27,845 bases of DNA. It comes from a virus. Taxonomy: Duplodnaviria > Heunggongvirae > Uroviricota > Caudoviricetes. The notes below the pieces were generated by a model that ran no database searches, was not told where the DNA came from, and was given only the letters and a program-made list of their open reading frames with translations. This document shows, in pieces, positions 152 through 27,845 of this stretch. The stretch spans positions 1 through 27,845 of IMG/VR virus record IMGVR_UViG_2802429221_000019; one strand, given 5' to 3'. The translations under genes were made by a program, and so were the position numbers. Numbering within the stretch: position 1 is the stretch's first letter; every line of letters begins with the position of its first letter.

Positions 152-227
<76 letters not shown>

Positions 228-280
228 GTTTAAAAGACATCGGCTTAAGCGGGTGTCTGGCTGAAAAGCCTGAAGAATTT

Positions 281-354
281 GGCGCGTTAACAAAGCGGTT
301 ATGTAGCGGATTGCAAATCCGTCTAGTCCGGTTCGACTCCGGAACGCGCCTCCA
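281..354 (+). tRNA. cysT: tRNA-Cys (anticodon GCA)
   Basis: 74-nt tRNA: acceptor GGCGCGT/ACGCGCC, anticodon loop TTGCAAA, T-arm GGTTCGACTCC, CCA end. Confidence 0.93.
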
Positions 355-366
355 CTTTTTTCCCGA

Positions 367-453
367 GCCCGGATGGTGGAATCGGTAGACACAAGGGATT
401 TAAAATCCCTCGGCGTTCGCGCTGTGCGGGTTCAAGTCCCGCTCCGGGTACCA
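367..453 (+). tRNA. leuZ: tRNA-Leu (anticodon UAA), class II with long variable arm
   Basis: 87-nt tRNA: acceptor GCCCGGA/TCCGGGT, anticodon stem-loop AGGGA-TTTAAAA-TCCCT, long variable arm, T-arm GGTTCAAGTCC, CCA end. Confidence 0.93.
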
Positions 454-17703: not shown

Positions 17704-18504
17704 TTAACCGCGCTTCGCCTTCTGCGTCGCGGTGTTTTTTCGTGTTGCAGGCTTCCGCGTTGTCTTTTTACTTTTGCTGCTTTCGTCCTGCGCCTGCGGT
17801 GCGCTGGCGTCTTCTGGGTCGGCTGCGGAATCGGCTTTTTTCAGGGCGCGGGAAAGGGTTGCAATCTCGCGTTTCACACCTGCGTTCGGGTTCAGGTGCA
17901 TCGCTTCGCGCAGCAGCTTCAGTGACAGGGCCATGCTGTCCGCATCACTCAGGCCACGGCGGGCAAAGGCGCACGCCTTGCATAATTTGGCGCGCACTTC
18001 GTCCGGCATGTCCTGGTCGGTGACAATCTCCCGGAGGGTGTCCAGTGGTTCGATAAAGGCGGATAAATCCGCGTCGGCATCCGTTCCGGCCTGCGTCAGT
18101 ATTGGGTTGCAGATTTCCTCGGTCAGTACCGTGGCAGCAGTACGGCCAAAGTTATCCGGCATGATGAGGTTGTGACGAACCACATACGCACCAATACGCA
18201 ATGCCAGCGGAAGATCGCCGCAGTCAATCGCCCACACCATCAGCGTGGCAATCACTTCATCCTGCTGCCCGCCGTCAGCCTCCAGCGTTCCTTCAATCCA
18301 GCCGGAAAAGTCCGGCAACAACTCTTTTTTGATGGCGGCTCTGGCGCTTCTGGCCTGTACGCCCTTAAGCCGGGCCTGTGCCAGACGCAGACGATACAGC
18401 ACCTCTTCATGCGCGGTACGCGCGGCGTGATCCACGCCTTCATTCGCCCGGCCTGCGCGCTGCGCCATCACGTTCTGCCAGTGTTGCTGTGCAGGGGTAA
18501 TCAT
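17704..18504 (-). CDS. M: terminase small (endonuclease) subunit
   Basis: 266 aa, P2 gpM-like, basic C-terminal tail. Confidence 0.82.
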   Translation of the reverse strand: MITPAQQHWQNVMAQRAGRANEGVDHAARTAHEEVLYRLRLAQARLKGVQARSARAAIKKELLPDFSGWIEGTLEADGGQQDEVIATLMVWAIDCGDLPLALRIGAYVVRHNLIMPDNFGRTAATVLTEEICNPILTQAGTDADADLSAFIEPLDTLREIVTDQDMPDEVRAKLCKACAFARRGLSDADSMALSLKLLREAMHLNPNAGVKREIATLSRALKKADSAADPEDASAPQAQDESSKSKKTTRKPATRKNTATQKAKRG

Positions 18505-20616: not shown

Positions 20617-22368
20617 ATGATTCAGGACGCTTTTGTGCGCCAGCGTGCGCGACAACTTTACTGGCAGGGTTATCCGCCCGCTGAAATATCACGTCTGATG
20701 GGAATAAACCCGAACACGATTTATGCGTGGAAAAAACGCGACCAGTGGGATGAAACGCCACCCGTGCAGCGTGTCACGCAGTCCATCGATGCGCGCCTCA
20801 TCCAGCTTACTGAAAAACAGAATAAAACAGGCGGTGACTTTAAGGAAATAGACCTGCTGACCCGGCAGCTTAAAAAACTGCATGATGGCCAGCCGGATGC
20901 GACGGCCACAGGAAAGAAAGGCCGGGCGAAAAAGCTTAAAAATCATTTCACGCCGGAACAGATTGCCGCACTGCGGGAAAAAATCATCAGCAGGCTGGAG
21001 TGGCATCAGCGGGGCTGGTTTGACTCCCTGACCCTTTGCAGGGAAGCCGGGATACGTAACAGGATGATCCTGAAATCCCGACAGATTGGGGCGACCTGGT
21101 ATTTTGCACAGGAAGCACTGCTGATGGCGCTGCGTGACGATGTGGCGCAACCTTACCAGCGTAACCAGATTTTTTTGTCTGCGTCGCGTCGTCAGGCGTT
21201 CCAGTTTAAAAGCATTATTCAGAAGGCTGCATCTGAAGTTGATGTGGAGCTGAAAGGGGGCGATAAAATCATCCTCTCCAACGGCGCAGAACTGCATTTT
21301 CTCGGTACTTCTGCTGCGACGGCACAGTCCTACACAGGCAATTTTTATTTTGATGAATTTTTCTGGGTCAGTCGCTTTGCTGAACTGCGCAAGGTGGCTG
21401 GCGCTATGGCAACCCTCAGCGGGCTGCGACGCACCTACTTCTCCACGCCATCAACCGAAACGCACGAGGCATACGTCTACTGGAACGGCGACCGCTGGAA
21501 CGAGAAAAAGGCCGCGCATAAACGCCAGCGTTTTTCTGTGGACTGGAAAACGCTGCATAACGGGCTTATCTGCCCCGACCGGACGTGGCGGCAAATTGTC
21601 ACGCTGGAAGATGTGGTTAATCACGGCTGGAAACACACCGATATTGATGAAATTCGTGATGAAAACACCGAAGACGAGTTCCGCAATCTCTATATGTGTG
21701 AGTTTGTCCGCGAAGGGGAATCGGCATTTAACCTGAATATCCTGATTGGCTGCGGCGTTGACGGATACGACGACTGGAAAGACTGGAAACCTTTTGCTCC
21801 CCGCCCGATGGGGAATCGTCCGGTATGGATTGGGTATGACGCAAACGGCAGCAGTGGAAACGGCGACAGTGGCGCGGTGTCCGTGGTGGTTCCTCCGGCT
21901 GTTCCTGGTGGCCGTTTTCGAACGGTGGAGACGCGACGCGTTCAGGGGCTGGAGTTTGAAGAACAGGCCAGAGTCATTGAAGAGTTCACGTGTCGCTACA
22001 ACGTGGAACACATCGGCATTGATGTGACGGGCGGGAACGGGGAGGCTGTTTATCAGATAGTGAAACGGTTTTTCCCTGCCGCTATTCCGTACACCTTCAC
22101 GCTGTCATCAAAACGGTCGCTGGTACTGAAAATGCTGCAAATAATGCGTGCCGGGCGGTGGGAATACGATCGCGCCGAACGCGAGCTGGTCGCGGCCTTT
22201 AACGCCGTGCGTAAGGTGAAAACACCGGGCGGCTTTATCACTTACGAAACGGACCGCGCGAGGGGGATCAGCCACGGCGACCTTGCGTGGGCAACCATGC
22301 TTGCTGTCATTAACGAACCAATTGGCGGCGAAGGAGAAAACGAGCGTTTCACGGTTATGGAGTTCTGA
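20617..22368 (+). CDS. P: terminase large (ATPase) subunit
   Basis: 583 aa; SD GGGGGAG upstream; divergent from O as in P2. Confidence 0.9.
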   Translation: MIQDAFVRQRARQLYWQGYPPAEISRLMGINPNTIYAWKKRDQWDETPPVQRVTQSIDARLIQLTEKQNKTGGDFKEIDLLTRQLKKLHDGQPDATATGKKGRAKKLKNHFTPEQIAALREKIISRLEWHQRGWFDSLTLCREAGIRNRMILKSRQIGATWYFAQEALLMALRDDVAQPYQRNQIFLSASRRQAFQFKSIIQKAASEVDVELKGGDKIILSNGAELHFLGTSAATAQSYTGNFYFDEFFWVSRFAELRKVAGAMATLSGLRRTYFSTPSTETHEAYVYWNGDRWNEKKAAHKRQRFSVDWKTLHNGLICPDRTWRQIVTLEDVVNHGWKHTDIDEIRDENTEDEFRNLYMCEFVREGESAFNLNILIGCGVDGYDDWKDWKPFAPRPMGNRPVWIGYDANGSSGNGDSGAVSVVVPPAVPGGRFRTVETRRVQGLEFEEQARVIEEFTCRYNVEHIGIDVTGGNGEAVYQIVKRFFPAAIPYTFTLSSKRSLVLKMLQIMRAGRWEYDRAERELVAAFNAVRKVKTPGGFITYETDRARGISHGDLAWATMLAVINEPIGGEGENERFTVMEF

Positions 22369-23414
22369 TGAGCAGAAAAAATAAAAAAGTGCGCATGAGT
22401 TCACGCATTGATCTCGCTGATGCGCTCAGGAAAGAATCGTCGCTCAGTGCATTCACATTTGATGGTCCTTACCGCCTGACCGGGCATGACCTGCTGGACA
22501 ATATGTACTGTGCTGATAACGGGCGATGGTATGAAACCCCGGTGGACTGGTACGGTCTGGCAAGAGCTGCCCGGCAAACGTCCTGGCATCAGTCTGCGCT
22601 TTACTTTAAGCGTAATGTATTGCTCGGCTGCTATATTCCGCATCCGCTGCTTTCCCGGCAGGATTTCTCGGCGCTGGCGCTGGACTGGTTTGTGTTCGGT
22701 AACGCATTCCTTGAGCTTCGAAGCAATATGCTCGGCGAACCGCTTAAATTACGGCACGCCCTGGCGAAATACATGCGACGCGGAAGCGATCTTGAATCAT
22801 GGTGGTATGTGCAGGATGGCAAGGACGCGTTTCAGTTTCGCCCTGGCAAAGTGTGCCACCTGATGAACCCGGATATTAACCAGGAAATCTACGGCATGCC
22901 GGAATATCTTGGCGCATTACTCTCGGCCAGCCTGTCTCATTCGGCGGACATGTTCAGAAAACTGTACTACGACAATGGATCCCACGCCGGGTGCATCATC
23001 TACATCGGTGCAGCGCAGGTAAACCGCGAAAGCATGGACTCCCTGAAGGAAACGCTACAGGGTGCGCGTGGTGGTGGTGCATTTAAAAACGTGCTCATTC
23101 ACGCGCCAAACGGGGGCAAAGAAGGTGTGCAAATTTTGCCGTTCCAGCAGATCACCGCAAAGGATGAGTTCATGAATGTTAAGGCGGCATCCCGTGATGA
23201 TGTGCTGGCTGCGCACCGCGTTCCGCCGCAACTGATGGGGGCGATGCCGGGCGAAAAAAGTGCGTTTGGTGATGTGGAGAAGGCAGCGCGGGTTTACGCA
23301 ATTAACGAGCTGATGCCCGTCATGGAGGCCATGAAGCACATCAATGACTGGCTTGGCGAAGAGGTGATCCGTTTTAATTCTTATGCTCTTCTTGATGAAA
23401 AAACAGCCCCGTGA
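22368..23414 (+). CDS. Q: portal protein
   Basis: 348 aa; ATG overlaps P stop (TGATG); P2 gpQ-like size and position. Confidence 0.9.
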   Translation: MSRKNKKVRMSSRIDLADALRKESSLSAFTFDGPYRLTGHDLLDNMYCADNGRWYETPVDWYGLARAARQTSWHQSALYFKRNVLLGCYIPHPLLSRQDFSALALDWFVFGNAFLELRSNMLGEPLKLRHALAKYMRRGSDLESWWYVQDGKDAFQFRPGKVCHLMNPDINQEIYGMPEYLGALLSASLSHSADMFRKLYYDNGSHAGCIIYIGAAQVNRESMDSLKETLQGARGGGAFKNVLIHAPNGGKEGVQILPFQQITAKDEFMNVKAASRDDVLAAHRVPPQLMGAMPGEKSAFGDVEKAARVYAINELMPVMEAMKHINDWLGEEVIRFNSYALLDEKTAP

Positions 23415-23430
23415 TGGGGCTGTCCTTTTT
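23403..23430. terminator. bidirectional intrinsic terminator between Q and the convergent 174-aa gene
   Basis: stem ACAGCCCC / GGGGCTGT with 5-nt loop, overlapping the Q stop, followed by CCTTTTT; the complementary strand has a T-run on the other side. Confidence 0.65.
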
Positions 23431-23953
23431 ACCAGAGTTGAACCATTTTCTGTGTGCCGTCAGGCTTGAGATTATCAATTTCAGAGAGAACGTAATATTG
23501 AATGGCTTCACAGACGGTGGTGTATGGTGAATTACCTTCTTTAAGTGGCACGATATTATTATTAACGCGAACCTGTATTTCATCGTTATACATTGCGATC
23601 GAAAGAGGAGTATGCACGAAGGCGACTTCGCCAGGTGTGTCGTCAACCACTGTCTCAATGCTGAAAATCAGTTTTCGCTCATCATTGCCGCCCCTTGCTT
23701 TGGGGGTAGCGGCAGGAATCTGAGATAAAGGCATTCTGCGAAACCCTTCAGCCGTTTCCAGTCCGCATGAAACGTAATGCTGGCGATTACCGTCGCTATC
23801 AGTCCATGTCTGTGATGGCAGCTCCAGAGAGATTTCATAAGCATCAACAATTCCCTGGGCAATGCGTACAAGCGGGGTCAGGTCTTCATTGCGGCGAAAA
23901 CTCTCCTTTACCTGATCTCGTTTTTCTCGTAACTGCTTGTAATTAATGACCAT
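23429..23953 (-). CDS. hypothetical protein, 174 aa, no recognised domain
   Basis: ORF-track frame 23429..23992; start chosen at ATG 23953 (MVINYKQLREKR...) with SD GGAGG 7 nt upstream; ends at the bidirectional terminator; GC content looks lower than the phage core. Confidence 0.5.
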   Translation of the reverse strand: MVINYKQLREKRDQVKESFRRNEDLTPLVRIAQGIVDAYEISLELPSQTWTDSDGNRQHYVSCGLETAEGFRRMPLSQIPAATPKARGGNDERKLIFSIETVVDDTPGEVAFVHTPLSIAMYNDEIQVRVNNNIVPLKEGNSPYTTVCEAIQYYVLSEIDNLKPDGTQKMVQLW

Positions 23954-24358
23954 AAGACAGCCTCCATTGATTTCTTTGCTCGTATTTTGCACTTATGAAG
24001 TGTGGTCGGCAAGGTGCCGCATCACTGACGCGCTTCGCTTGTCTGCTGCTTCGCCGGGGCATAAAAAATTTATGCCCCGACTCTCCAGCTCCCGTATCAA
24101 TCAGATAATTTCACGACGTCTTCCAACTTATCGCCATCATCGACGGCCAGACTCTTACGCAATCCCATCGAGCTGATAGCATGTTCTCGCCGCCTCAGTG
24201 CGATTTTGACGGCCTTACCTTTCACCCCATCAAATCAGAACCCCTTACGTATTTTTCACGCTCAGCGTGAGCGATACAGCCATTCTGTTGTGTCGCTGCG
24301 ACATCGTTCAGGGAATGCTATTTACCCCCTGAAACGCGGGCTGTTCCCCCGTCACCTG

Positions 24359-24382
24359 CGCGCAGAAAAAGCGCGTTTTTTT
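24359..24382 (+). terminator. terminator-like hairpin with U-tract (plus-strand sense) in noncoding region
   Basis: CGCGC - AGAAAAA - GCGCG followed by T7. Confidence 0.35.
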
Positions 24383-24450
24383 GTGCACGCACGGATCCTT
24401 GACGGATCCAGCCGCCATGCGGGCCGGAAGGGCAAAAAGTCGTTCAAAAA

Positions 24451-24480
24451 AATTGTGCAAATTTGTGCACTATTGTGCAA
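24451..24480. repeat. three tandem 10-bp repeats (ATTGTGCAAA / TTTGTGCACT / ATTGTGCAAA)
   Basis: TTGTGCA core at 24453, 24463 and 24473, exactly one helical turn apart, at the boundary of the AT-rich island. Confidence 0.6.
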
Positions 24481-24718
24481 ACCGAACGGAGTGCTTATTT
24501 ATAGAAAAATTGAGCCTATGTATACGACGTTGCTTATAAATACATCCCTGACTGTTATGTGAAAATATGCAAAGAAAATTACATGCTATGGAGATGAGAG
24601 TTATAACGACCTTTTCTACTTATTTGTAAAAGAGGTCGTTATGTAAAAGTTAAATTATTTTTTACTCTTGATATGTGTAAAAAATATAGCTTTGATGTTT
24701 ATATCCTATTAGAATACA

Positions 24719-26416
24719 TTATTTATCCTCTTTAATGATTTTGTTATAGTCAAAATCCCAAATTTTTCTGTCAATGCCGTTTGTTGGTGTAACCCGGTAG
24801 AATAAGGATCGTAATCCATTGTAAAAATACTGGAGAGATTTCTGATTTTCTGGTTTGTCTAACCAGTTTCTTGTAATCATTCTAAAGAATTCAATATGCT
24901 GATTGAATATTTTCTTATTTAATTTTCTTCTTAAACCGGATGTAGACTCATGGTTGTCTTTTCTTTTCTGAATTTCAGTTTCAATTGATTGTAATTGAGG
25001 ACGTATCTTGAGTAAGTATAACTCTTTCGAAAAACCATTGTTAATTATATCCTGATTTTCCCAGAAGGAAGAGTCGTCGGTATTATAAAGGTGCTCACAA
25101 TGCTCAAATATCAATTGTTCTGGAGCTTTTTCACCCGGCAGTGATATAATTCCTCTCTGATCCTCAGGGCTGTGATCTCCATCAAGAATACAAATTGATT
25201 TTAACGAGGTTTCCTTAAGATGAGAATCATTAAAAATAGTTTTTAAATTGTCTGCACCAATGAAACAATCAATTAAGTGAAATGAATTACTAACTATAGC
25301 AAAATTTGGATATTTGCTTATCCAATAACCAAGTATTTCATTAAATAAAAAGCGAGCTTCTTCATCTTCCGTGAAAACTGGTATCTTGTTCCTTGTGTAT
25401 ATCTCATCCTTTGTTTGTGTTTTCAGATACATTGTTATTTTTAATATATCAGGATTATCCAAAAGCAGAGCCTTTGTAATATTGTTAATTAGATAGGCAA
25501 CATGATATTTTTTATGAAAAGCATATTCTAGCAATGTCAGACTGTGCGTTGTGAAAAATACTTGAATCTTATAATCTTTTGCGTATTGATAAATTTTATC
25601 TAATAATCTTATCTGTAAAGAAGGATGTAAAGTGGCATCAAATTCATCTATTAACAGAATGCTTTCTTTTTGATCAGTGGATTGAATAAGTGATTCAAAA
25701 TAATACCTAAGGCTAACTAATGCCTTGATTATAACGAATATATTGTCTTCCCCGGATGATATGGTATTAGAATCAATTGCTGGGTTATCGGTATCAAATA
25801 ATGGGCCAGCTTTAAAATCTCCGATATTGTTTGATTCTATATTTATAATATTAATGCCCAAAAGTTCATTATATATTTTCGATATATAACCAACATACTC
25901 TTCTGGTAGGTTTAACGGAATTTTTGTAAGGGCGTCGTCTTTAGTTTCACCAATTGGGAATAGTCGCGATAATCCAAGATATAAAACTGGTTTAGCTGGA
26001 AGTGATTGTTTTTCTTTTCCGCGTGGGTATACTGGTTTGATAGCATACCGTTGCGCTTCGTCTGGATTTTTTGAGTTGTGCTTTCTGAAGTCTAGTGTGC
26101 TATGATCCAAATAGTTAATAGAAAATAACACACCTTTTGTTCCCTCTGCCGGATCGGTGTAATTTTTTGATTCCCTAACAATTGCTTCCATTTTGGGGTT
26201 GGCTATTTTGTTTATAGATTTTATAACTCTAACACAATTACTATTTGAATAATTTTGTGATCGAGATGGTGGCATTTGGAAACCATTGCTAATTAAATGA
26301 AGCAATGTTGTCTTACATGTCCCATTGGTTCCTGATATTATATTGATGTCTTCATTGAATGAGAAGTCAATATCTATCAGTTTCTTAAATTTTTTAAAAC
26401 TAATTTCTTTAATCAT
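24719..26416 (-). CDS. OLD-family-like ABC ATPase with C-terminal Toprim-like nuclease domain
   Basis: 565 aa; Walker A GTNGTCKTT (aa 29-37), signature-like ISSGE (aa ~219-223), Walker B ILLIDE (aa 253-258), H-loop FFTTHS (aa ~287-292); C-terminal PVFTEDEE (Glu ~350) and ILDGDHS (DxD 412-414) fit a Toprim fold; SD AAGGA 8 nt upstream; very AT-rich. Confidence 0.7.
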   Translation of the reverse strand: MIKEISFKKFKKLIDIDFSFNEDINIISGTNGTCKTTLLHLISNGFQMPPSRSQNYSNSNCVRVIKSINKIANPKMEAIVRESKNYTDPAEGTKGVLFSINYLDHSTLDFRKHNSKNPDEAQRYAIKPVYPRGKEKQSLPAKPVLYLGLSRLFPIGETKDDALTKIPLNLPEEYVGYISKIYNELLGINIINIESNNIGDFKAGPLFDTDNPAIDSNTISSGEDNIFVIIKALVSLRYYFESLIQSTDQKESILLIDEFDATLHPSLQIRLLDKIYQYAKDYKIQVFFTTHSLTLLEYAFHKKYHVAYLINNITKALLLDNPDILKITMYLKTQTKDEIYTRNKIPVFTEDEEARFLFNEILGYWISKYPNFAIVSNSFHLIDCFIGADNLKTIFNDSHLKETSLKSICILDGDHSPEDQRGIISLPGEKAPEQLIFEHCEHLYNTDDSSFWENQDIINNGFSKELYLLKIRPQLQSIETEIQKRKDNHESTSGLRRKLNKKIFNQHIEFFRMITRNWLDKPENQKSLQYFYNGLRSLFYRVTPTNGIDRKIWDFDYNKIIKEDK

Positions 26417-26433
26417 CTATATCATCCTTAAAT

Positions 26434-27279
26434 TTAAATGTCAGGGATTTTTATACCATGATTATAAATGATAATTTCTAGACCTTTTTTCTTATCTTGT
26501 GCAGTATAATTAAGCGTATAATCAGTCATATTGAATTCATGATATATGCTTTTTATTTCAGGCACATTGTCATAAGACACAACCCAAGGTAGTTGAATTT
26601 CCCGTAGTGTATTAGCGATTTTTACATGATCATCATGTTTATAAAAATTTCTATATAACTCTGCTCCTTTAACATAATAAGGTGGATCAAGATATATTAG
26701 ACTATTTTGGGGTAGCAATGCTTTTTGGTGTAGCAGAAAATCTACAGCATCAAAATTCGATACGTAAATTTTCTCCTTATATGCCCCAATTAGTTCAATC
26801 CTTTTAATTAACTCTTTTTTGTTGAATCGTGCATCTAACTTCCATGGTCCTTTTTGTTCTTTCCCTCCAATAACGCCAGCCTTAAGTATTCCTGAACGGT
26901 TTGTTCTATTTAAAAAGAAAGTAGATAATGCGACTTCAAGCATACTATATTTATCATTGTTTAGGAGTATCTCCTTTTGAGTATGCCAATTTTCAATAGT
27001 CACAGGAACTTCATCAATCATTTCACATAACAGATCGTTATGATTAACCACTGCAAACCAAAAAGAATAAAGGGCAGGATCAATATCATTTATGAAGATA
27101 TTTTCAACAAGACCGTTAAGGAGCAAACCTAATGCAACACCGGCTCCACCTGCATAAGGTTCAGCATAACATCCACCAATGAGATCATTGTTGCGGAGTA
27201 TTTGTTCAATATGTGGCAAGAATTTTGCCTTACCTCCCGGATAACGAAGAGGGGTTCTAAAATGAGAAGGCTTTGTCAT
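26434..27279 (-). CDS. Dam-family (D12 class) N6-adenine DNA methyltransferase
   Basis: 281 aa; motifs YPGGK (aa 13-17), EPYAGGAGV (aa 40-48, SAM-binding FxGxG type), DPPY (aa 198-201); 17-nt gap to the downstream OLD-like gene. Confidence 0.85.
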   Translation of the reverse strand: MTKPSHFRTPLRYPGGKAKFLPHIEQILRNNDLIGGCYAEPYAGGAGVALGLLLNGLVENIFINDIDPALYSFWFAVVNHNDLLCEMIDEVPVTIENWHTQKEILLNNDKYSMLEVALSTFFLNRTNRSGILKAGVIGGKEQKGPWKLDARFNKKELIKRIELIGAYKEKIYVSNFDAVDFLLHQKALLPQNSLIYLDPPYYVKGAELYRNFYKHDDHVKIANTLREIQLPWVVSYDNVPEIKSIYHEFNMTDYTLNYTAQDKKKGLEIIIYNHGIKIPDI

Positions 27280-27367
27280 CCACGATTTTCTCAGTAAAAA
27301 ATAAACATAATCTTAACATGGCACTTGAGTTTTCCCGATAAAAAACATCGTCGCCGTCCATAGATAT

Positions 27368-27383
27368 TTGCATAGTTATGCAA
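27368..27383. promoter_or_regulatory. perfect palindrome TTGCATA-GT-TATGCAA, candidate operator in the leader of the methyltransferase operon
   Basis: 16-bp dyad located between the predicted promoter and the methyltransferase start. Confidence 0.35.
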
Positions 27384-27402
27384 AAAATCCAGTTTTCAAT
27401 GA

Positions 27403-27432
27403 ATTAAGGGGAATTATATCAATTGCATTCTA
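27403..27432 (-). promoter_or_regulatory. candidate extended -10 promoter for the methyltransferase/OLD-like operon
   Basis: minus-strand TGATATAAT (27411-27403) with weak -35 TTGTGT (27432-27427, 18-nt spacer). Confidence 0.35.
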
Positions 27433-27464
27433 TTCAACACAATATTCGGTTAGCGATTCACATC

Positions 27465-27845
27465 TCATCCCTCATGATGGAAAAGGCATATCCAACTTTG
27501 TAATTGTTTTTTCTCATCATCATTTTGATTACTAAAGTGCTGTTTGCCTCTCTTTTGGAGCAAAGTAGCCTTGCGGCGGGCGCGTTCAGTGGTTTCATTG
27601 ATTCTTTGTGCGTGCTCTGCGTCACGGATGGCGCGCAGCATGTCAGAAAGCACGGTAACGGGAGTTTTCATGGTGTTCTGGTCCTGCTGAATTGTGGATG
27701 CCAGGCGTGCGGCGGCTTCGGGGTCTGATGCCCCGAGCTGCTCCAGATAGCTGGAGACCGGGTTATGGCGGATCTCCGTGCTGCTTACGCCGTGATTACG
27801 GCTCAGGCGCTGCCAGAGCTGCGTGATTCGGCTGTCCGGGCGGGT
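27465..27845 (-). CDS. phage early-region protein, C-terminal part (5' end outside window)
   Basis: frame is open from the window edge (hand translation ...TRPDSRITQLWQRLSRNHGVSSTEIRH...) to the stop at 27465; function not recognised; last ~30 codons are AT-rich. Confidence 0.55.
   Translation of the reverse strand, partial: TRPDSRITQLWQRLSRNHGVSSTEIRHNPVSSYLEQLGASDPEAAARLASTIQQDQNTMKTPVTVLSDMLRAIRDAEHAQRINETTERARRKATLLQKRGKQHFSNQNDDEKKQLQSWICLFHHEG

Follow-up and report, generated by a model that had tools for sequence, protein, structure and literature searches.

A Phased TTGTGCA Array as the Probable Distal Block of an Extended cos Site in a P88-Like Prophage of the P2 Family

Three direct copies of the heptamer TTGTGCA, set one helical turn apart at the edge of a variable island, probably constitute the distal terminase-recognition block of an extended bipartite cos site in a P88-like prophage of the P2 family, as judged by comparison of its DNA with that of relatives and satellites. 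The window (the whole stretch of 27,845 nucleotides that was analyzed) is a P88-like prophage of the genus Xuanwuvirus, P2 family, and its orientation is opposite to the P2 map. The original prediction left three options for the array: a packaging or cos-associated element, a regulator-binding array or iterons, and a recombination target that captured the island. The packaging option gained support from the fixed geometry of the array, from the homologous array in P2, P4, 186, and PSP3, and from its occurrence in a satellite without packaging genes, whereas the other two options lost ground.

Results

The repeat array and its prophage setting

The sequence at 24450-24479 reads aaaTTGTGCA aatTTGTGCA ctaTTGTGCA, and Tandem Repeats Finder reports a repeat of period 10 with 3.3 copies at 24449-24481. 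The word itself is not enriched, as the whole window contains seven copies versus 6.5 expected; TTGTGCA is, at the same time, the sole exact 7-mer tripled at 10-bp phase anywhere in the window. A phased 7-mer triple was seen in none of 1000 dinucleotide-preserving shuffles, a 6-mer triple in one, and a 5-mer triple in 20. The exact positions, the Tandem Repeats Finder output, and the shuffles thus establish the three 10-bp-phased copies as real, and their placement downstream of the ATPase gene and beside a GC-rich noncoding stretch had also been described correctly (Table 1). It is reasonable to suppose from the sequence that the helical phasing may reflect cooperative binding on one face of the DNA. 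A fourth, isolated TTGTGCA, absent from the original prediction, is found 72 bp upstream of the array.

According to Pfam and annotated relatives, the genes for gpP and gpQ are located upstream of the array and the replication gene gpA beyond the island; the N-terminal part of gpP contains a helix-turn-helix (PF06056/HTH_23, residues 6-63). The array therefore occupies an interval flanked by the portal gene Q on one side and by the end of the early region or hotspot on the other, which is where cos resides in P2-like phages (PMC9122126). The distance from the array to the portal stop is 1039 bp here and approximately 370-410 bp in relatives without the inserted 187-aa ORF. This ORF is missing in P88 and several close relatives, and the segment between the portal stop and cos is a second insertion/deletion hotspot (window 23390-24016; boundaries 23389/24017). 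No known RNA families were found in the cos/array region. Three consecutive tRNA genes near position 1 (window 152-450, left end) probably represent the chromosomal flank or the prophage attachment region.

Table 1. Coordinates of the features discussed in the text (positions in the window unless stated otherwise)
Feature	Position	Strand	Basis
gpM, terminase small subunit (PF05944)	17704-18504	-	Pfam
gpP, terminase large subunit	20617-22368	+	Pfam
gpQ, portal	22368-23414	+	Pfam and annotated relatives
187-aa ORF	23429-23992	-	No Pfam or PADLOC match
Left (portal-side) cos flank, common to satellite	24314..24337	.	Near-identical to ETEC6334 satellite from ~24317 (TGCTATTTACCCCCTGAAACGCG)
Predicted 19-nt cohesive-end segment (cosN)	24338..24356	-	Homology to P2 end
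GC hairpin and T-run (GCGCGCAGAAAAAGCGCG-T7), adjoining the predicted nick	24357..24380	+	Terminator scan: site 24358-24376
Proximal single TTGTGCA	24381..24387	+	TGCA core 27 nt from predicted nick
GC-rich spacer	24388..24445	.	Constant length, variable sequence
A7 tract adjoining the array	24446..24452	+	AAAAAAA 80-90% conserved
Triple TTGTGCA, putative distal block, with which the conserved cos module ends	24453..24479	+	Conservation profile
TTGTGCA array, three copies	24453-59, 24463-69, 24473-79	+	Exact word search
Variable cargo island, outside cos	24480..27567	-	Homology breaks
ATPase, 565 aa	24719-26416	-	Pfam, PADLOC
D12 adenine methyltransferase	26434-27279	-	Pfam, PADLOC
Satellite-like element, ~13 kb, between hpt and gcd	E. 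coli ETEC6334, NZ_CP122604.1, ~4124100-4136030 (L345 2148-10150; L347 1-4533)		

The predicted cohesive end and the anatomy of cos

Direct comparison of the P2 cos with the window by blastn-short revealed no meaningful similarity, and the P2 end, written as a degenerate pattern with at most three mismatches, had no match in the window. The two are bridged by intermediate relatives from a portal-protein scan with one genome per species (52 loci, 31-100% portal identity), many of which have, in the column of 24338-24356, the minus-strand sequence GGCGAGGCGGGGGAGCAAGC, a match to the P2 end GGCGAGGCGGGGAAAGCAC over its first 12 nt; the cohesive end was therefore set at 24338-24356. It reads GGTGACGGGGGAACAGCCC on the minus strand and is identical to the P2 end in 12 of 19 positions, and, being placed by homology alone, its nick positions are uncertain by approximately 2 nt. 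In 32 diverse loci, the overhang core TTCCCCCG is at least 90% conserved, and so is TTTTTGTGCA at the proximal site; the CCCC and GCGCG columns of the left flank are also conserved in these loci. The one linear P88-like record, LR595891, starts at window position 24434, which falls within the spacer instead of at the predicted nick, and shows no terminal redundancy. Its start may be arbitrary and fails to support the nick placement, and we treated this terminus as uninformative about a physical end.

From the nick toward the island, the proposed site would comprise the 19-nt end, the hairpin with its T-run, the proximal TTGTGCA, the spacer of constant length and free sequence (offset of 72 bp, counted between site starts), the A-tract, and the triple repeat. 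The terminator scan flags the nick-side hairpin as terminator-like on the plus strand, but its RNA folds no better than that of shuffled sequences (z -0.9). At the equivalent place by the nick, the hairpin CCGCCCCGTGAAGCGGGCGG is its analogue in P2 and P4, and 186 and PSP3 also have a hairpin there. The spacer contains an exact direct repeat, ACGGATCC, at 24391-98 and 24402-09, 11 bp apart. The T7 run that precedes the proximal TTGTGCA and the A7 tract that precedes the array form an inverted pair. The array begins 96 bp from the predicted cohesive end, and 99 nt separate the nick from the first TGCA core. The suggested comparison with known IHF sites yielded no match to the consensus WATCAANNNNTTR with up to one mismatch in 24357-24480.

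Conservation and geometry among relatives

The exact 18-mer of the array is found in 80 viral contigs, all of them from phages. A P88-like portal gene lies approximately 0.4-1.1 kb upstream of it in each of the 74 contigs with at least 400 bp of upstream sequence, the other six having less than 370 bp there. Among 80 portal loci of close viral contigs, the array is retained in all 78 in which the upstream anchor was found, with divergence right after it. At a larger distance, in loci from Citrobacter, Serratia, Kosakonia, Pantoea, Erwinia, Brenneria, Morganella, and others, the array in the form TGTGC N5 TGTGC N5 TGTGC is present in approximately 33 of 40. Several of the remaining loci have three TGCA cores at the 10-bp period within other flanks, and since these variants retain the cores while the flanks differ, TGCA is the invariant part of the repeat. 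In a few relatives, the third repeat is degenerate (TTTTGCA, CTTACA) or the array has two copies only, and some of them may be decaying prophages.

In a column profile of 32 distinct sequences from many genera, the overhang core, GCGCG, TTTTTGTGCA, and AAAAAAATTGTGCAAAtTTGTGCAc.aTTgTGCA are conserved at 80-99%, the spacer columns show 50-80% versus 90-99% at the flanking sites, and conservation falls to random levels after 24479. The geometry is rigid as well. Among 180 P88-type arrays (loci from many genera, not de-duplicated between searches), the offset from the proximal site to the array is 72 bp in 177 and 71 bp in three, and the offset from the overhang core to the array is 109 ± 1 bp. 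The 40 nt that follow the array, by contrast with this constancy, fall into 45 unrelated classes, which start within 1 nt of the end of the third repeat; many of them open with a terminator for cargo transcription. Finally, among 5426 complete E. coli genomes, 1152 contain the cos module, and the matches stop almost without exception at 24479-24482.

Two records from these searches deserve a separate comment. Contig NZ_JBQPOM010000071.1 ("Vagococcus sp. WN89Y", L193) has a P88-like portal gene (99% identical) and a cos region closely matching the E. coli type; Vagococcus is Gram-positive, and the contig is probably contaminated or mis-binned. A Symbiopectobacterium MAG (L202) contains a tandem array of approximately 12 copies of a 10-bp unit, which includes ACGGTGAATTAC-like sequence, about 2000-2120 bp downstream of the portal stop; the array belongs to the cargo region and is unrelated to the TGCA repeats.

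Homologous arrangement in P2, P4, 186, and PSP3

The same 1 + 3 arrangement of TGCA cores is seen in P2, P4, 186, and PSP3. One TGCA-core site, whose sequence in these elements is TGCATTAAAACC, is situated 25 nt from the nick (27 nt in the window), and three more, spaced at 9-12 bp, start 95-96 nt from the nick (96-99 nt in the window); over all layouts, the three distal sites lie about 96-125 nt from the nick. Read in one direction, the P2 array is ATGCAA-N4-ATGCAC-N6-ATGCAA and that of the window GTGCAA-N4-GTGCAC-N4-GTGCAA, and the bases after the cores (A, C, A) occur in identical order in both.

For the P2/P4 cos (Ziermann & Calendar 1990), the accessible literature gives a conserved core of 55 bp only (PMC3931495, PMC5694545, PMC9594776), and the distal array may not have been described as part of this site. 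We counted exactly 55 bp of sequence in which P2 and P4 are identical, with the proximal TGCA at one end and TGCGCGC at the other, and this length matches the quoted core. The distal array is approximately 67 bp outside it. According to an engineering study, longer cos flanks transduce better (PMC9594776). For the 186-type cos as well, matching sequence in many genome hits sets in 5-10 nt outside the first TGCA, so that the boundary rule is general.

In P2 itself (33424-33479; L003 2925-2980), the old-tin promoter shares sequence with the TGCAT array, its -35 element (TTGAAT) overlapping the outermost repeat, and terminase binding and old transcription could interfere with each other.

Satellites

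Satellites depend on the terminase of the helper, and cis elements shared by helper and satellite are therefore good candidates for packaging signals. A weak match among E. coli genomes was traced to a satellite-like element in strain ETEC6334 (Table 1). It has genes for two integrases, a toprim primase, an Icd-like protein, an ogr/Delta-like protein, and a 423-aa "P2 family major capsid protein", and no terminase, portal, or tail genes were found in it. It shares with the window the region from ~24317 to 24479; conservation covers the overhang, the proximal site, and the array (AAATTGTGCAAATTTGTGCACTTTTGTGCAG), whereas the spacer differs in sequence but not in length. The ETEC6334-type cos/ogr region occurs in 53 complete E. 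coli genomes.

In 65 distinct sequences of P4-like satellites, the ATGCA-type array is invariant, including those with Psu identity as low as 62-64%, whereas the spacer drifts; on the opposite side, conservation in these elements stops 7 bp past the overhang. No P88-type cos was found among 80 close P4-relative loci, all of which have the P2 or 186 type. Thus the array, as expected of a P2-family cos element, is shared with satellites, in the ETEC6334-type elements directly and in the P4-like ones as the P2-type equivalent. Conservation in satellites would also fit any other cis element shared by helper and satellite.

The cargo island and its boundary

In 16 phage records with 92-94% identity, every match stops at 24479-24482, the end of the third repeat, which agrees with the original description of the array as standing at an island boundary. 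Homology to other P88-like phages resumes at 27568, in locus L001 inside the annotated gpA, and these two breaks delimit 24480-27567 as an island that can be replaced. In P2-like phages, Rousset et al. described a hotspot next to cos (PMC9122126), to which this island corresponds, and an earlier observation for 186-related prophages, as cited in PMC5694545, is in agreement.

The gene first taken for OLD-like encodes an AAA_15/AAA_21 ABC-type ATPase, whose best PADLOC match is HEC-04 (1e-16), with the ATPase-Toprim model also among the top ones. The D12 methyltransferase matches PD-Lambda-5_B at 8.7e-122, and to judge by these matches the two genes may form a PD-lambda-5-like defence pair. The 3' untranslated region of the ATPase gene contains a 17-bp hairpin (ATAACGACCTCTTTTAC / GTAGAAAAGGTCGTTAT, 24588-24627, minus strand; -18.7 kcal/mol, z -5.7), which is not followed by a T-run.

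Discussion

The comparisons show the layout, its conservation and fixed geometry, the homology with P2, P4, 186, and PSP3, and the presence in satellites; that a protein binds the array, and which protein this might be, is inferred. The phage terminase would read all four TGCA-core sites, and the candidate reader is gpM (PF05944), the N-terminal helix-turn-helix of gpP (PF06056), or both; a search for solved structures related to gpM or gpP returned none that was useful. The reader would occupy the three phased copies next to one another along one face of the DNA, and wrapping or bending of the spacer would bring in the proximal copy, so that the nuclease becomes positioned at the nick. The block could act either in initiation, as cosB does, or in termination, as cosQ does. 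The array would then be the last stretch needed in cis for packaging, and since the cis requirement would end with it, the DNA beyond could be replaced, with the defence hotspot starting at the very next nucleotide.

The abruptness of this junction is also what a recombination target would produce, be it an integron attI-like capture site or a terminase-bound fixed endpoint for recombination of cos ends. Such a role would account for 45 unrelated classes of sequence beginning within 1 nt of the third repeat, and cos ends have been speculated to drive exchange in the hotspot (PMC9122126). We nevertheless consider it unlikely. No repeat is present at 27568, the other end of the island, where a matching site would be expected; the only stray TTGTGCA, at 26497, is inside the methylase gene; and Pfam and PADLOC reveal no dedicated recombinase gene in or beside the island. 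Moreover, the P4 array is equally conserved, yet it borders the conserved psu gene, and the hotspot adjoins the opposite side of cos. A sharp edge needs no special mechanism if purifying selection acts on cos and the flanks undergo homologous exchange, and selection for packaging explains the boundary better than a dedicated capture site does. That the array serves transcription, as an operator or promoter, an Ogr/Delta-type late promoter, or a weak terminator or insulator shielding cos, seems quite unlikely. Phased direct repeats are typical of response-regulator operators; on the minus strand, the first two repeats can pair (GTGCA/TGCAC) and are followed by T7, which the scan flags as terminator-like; and the P2 old promoter (starts 33424, 33426) abuts the outer repeat of the P2 array. 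However, the array hairpin is no stabler than shuffles (z -1.1), and many cargos bring a strong terminator of their own directly before the array. The scan shows no promoter-like site overlapping the array, and the TGT-N12-ACA dyad of Ogr/Delta-dependent promoters is absent there. In addition, the array stays constant while the content and orientation of the cargo vary over the 45 classes, and in most relatives the DNA from the portal gene to the array encodes nothing for which a promoter would be needed.

Replication-origin iterons, or a ParR-type centromere (parC) for ParM-like partition genes, also consist of direct repeats phased at about 10 bp, and in P88 and its relatives genes for ParM-like and small partition proteins do lie in the interval from gpA to the array. 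Here, however, the island replaces the partition genes and the array stays, and the homologous array is present in P2, 186, PSP3, and P4, with no partition gene annotated in the parts of the records that were examined. The P2 origin is inside gene A, and satellites with an unrelated primase-based replicon and origin repeats of their own keep the array. A distance to the cohesive end fixed within 1 bp would be demanded by cos function only, and the iteron or parC assignment appears highly improbable. The remaining alternative accepts a role in packaging and assigns the site to a host architectural protein that would act as a cos accessory factor by bending the DNA. The invariant TGCA is common to P2-type and P88-type arrays, whose phages infect the same hosts, A-tracts and T-tracts flank the sites, and IHF sites are annotated near cos in the phiCTX record. 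On the other hand, the IHF consensus is absent from the DNA that separates nick and array, each phage lineage has its own bases around the core (TTGTGCA versus A/G/T-TGCAT), and the repeats of HP1 (CACGGAAAAT) and phiCTX (CGCAG) are quite different. Because the flavour of the repeat varies with the phage lineage, we favor a phage-encoded reader and regard a host protein as an improbable one. The distal terminase-recognition block of an extended cos is the reading that we retain.

That repeats beside the cos nick guide terminase, and that a hotspot adjoins cos, is already known. What may be new is the P88-type cos itself, the rigid 1 + 3 TGCA layout of P2, 186, P4, and P88-type elements past the 55-bp core, and a satellite family with a P88-type cos. 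We would tentatively go further and suggest, as a possibility that we hold with considerable doubt, that P2-family phages and their satellites all have an extended cos of about 165 bp with a rigid plan (one TGCA at ~25 nt and three phased ones at ~96 nt, 71-72 bp apart), that the TTGTGCA or TGCAT flavour sets which satellite a given helper can package, and that the terminase-bound outer block defines the nucleotide at which cassettes are swapped, the junction being mechanistic and not only selective.

If the proposed assignment is true, it gives the outer limit of the packaging signal for a prophage type that approximately one in five complete E. coli genomes contains, and it accounts for the single precise base at which the anti-phage hotspot begins in P2-like phages. 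The cohesive end, the 72-bp offset, and the three TGCA cores would together provide a sequence anchor for delimiting islands and for sorting satellites by their likely helper. On the practical side, a needed block may be missing where P2/P4 cosmids or transducing particles rely on the 55-bp core.

Among known systems, the closest is the P2/P4 cos, which the site described here resembles in genomic position, in the predicted 19-nt GC-rich end placed by homology, in the hairpin by the nick, and in being shared with dependent satellites; they differ in the repeat, which in the P2 type is (A/G/T)TGCAT at 12/10 or 9/10 spacing and in the window TTGTGCA at exactly 10/10. Two other members of the P2 family, phiCTX and HP1, likewise have short repeats within ~150 bp of the right cohesive end, and the GenBank record of phiCTX annotates repeats R4-R6 spanning cos together with IHF sites, although the motifs (CGCAG-type in phiCTX, CACGGAAAAT in HP1) and the spacing are different from those in the window. 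Plasmid iterons and the parC sites bound by ParR share with the array the direct repeats phased at about one helical turn, whereas the array is independent of rep and par genes, is tied to the cohesive end within 1 bp, and occurs in satellites. The repeats of lambda cosB (R1-R3, bound by gpNu1, with the IHF site I1) are read by the terminase small subunit, which positions the nuclease. The array is similar to cosB in that several short repeats flank the nicking site on one side and at a defined distance, and the reading mechanism proposed here would be comparable to that of the gpNu1 R sites; this is a likeness of working and not of family. The sequences are unrelated, P2-type phages are reported to package monomeric circles, cosB has an IHF site between its repeats while the window has no IHF consensus at 24357-24480, and the window has four direct copies arranged as 1 + 3 with a 72-bp offset.
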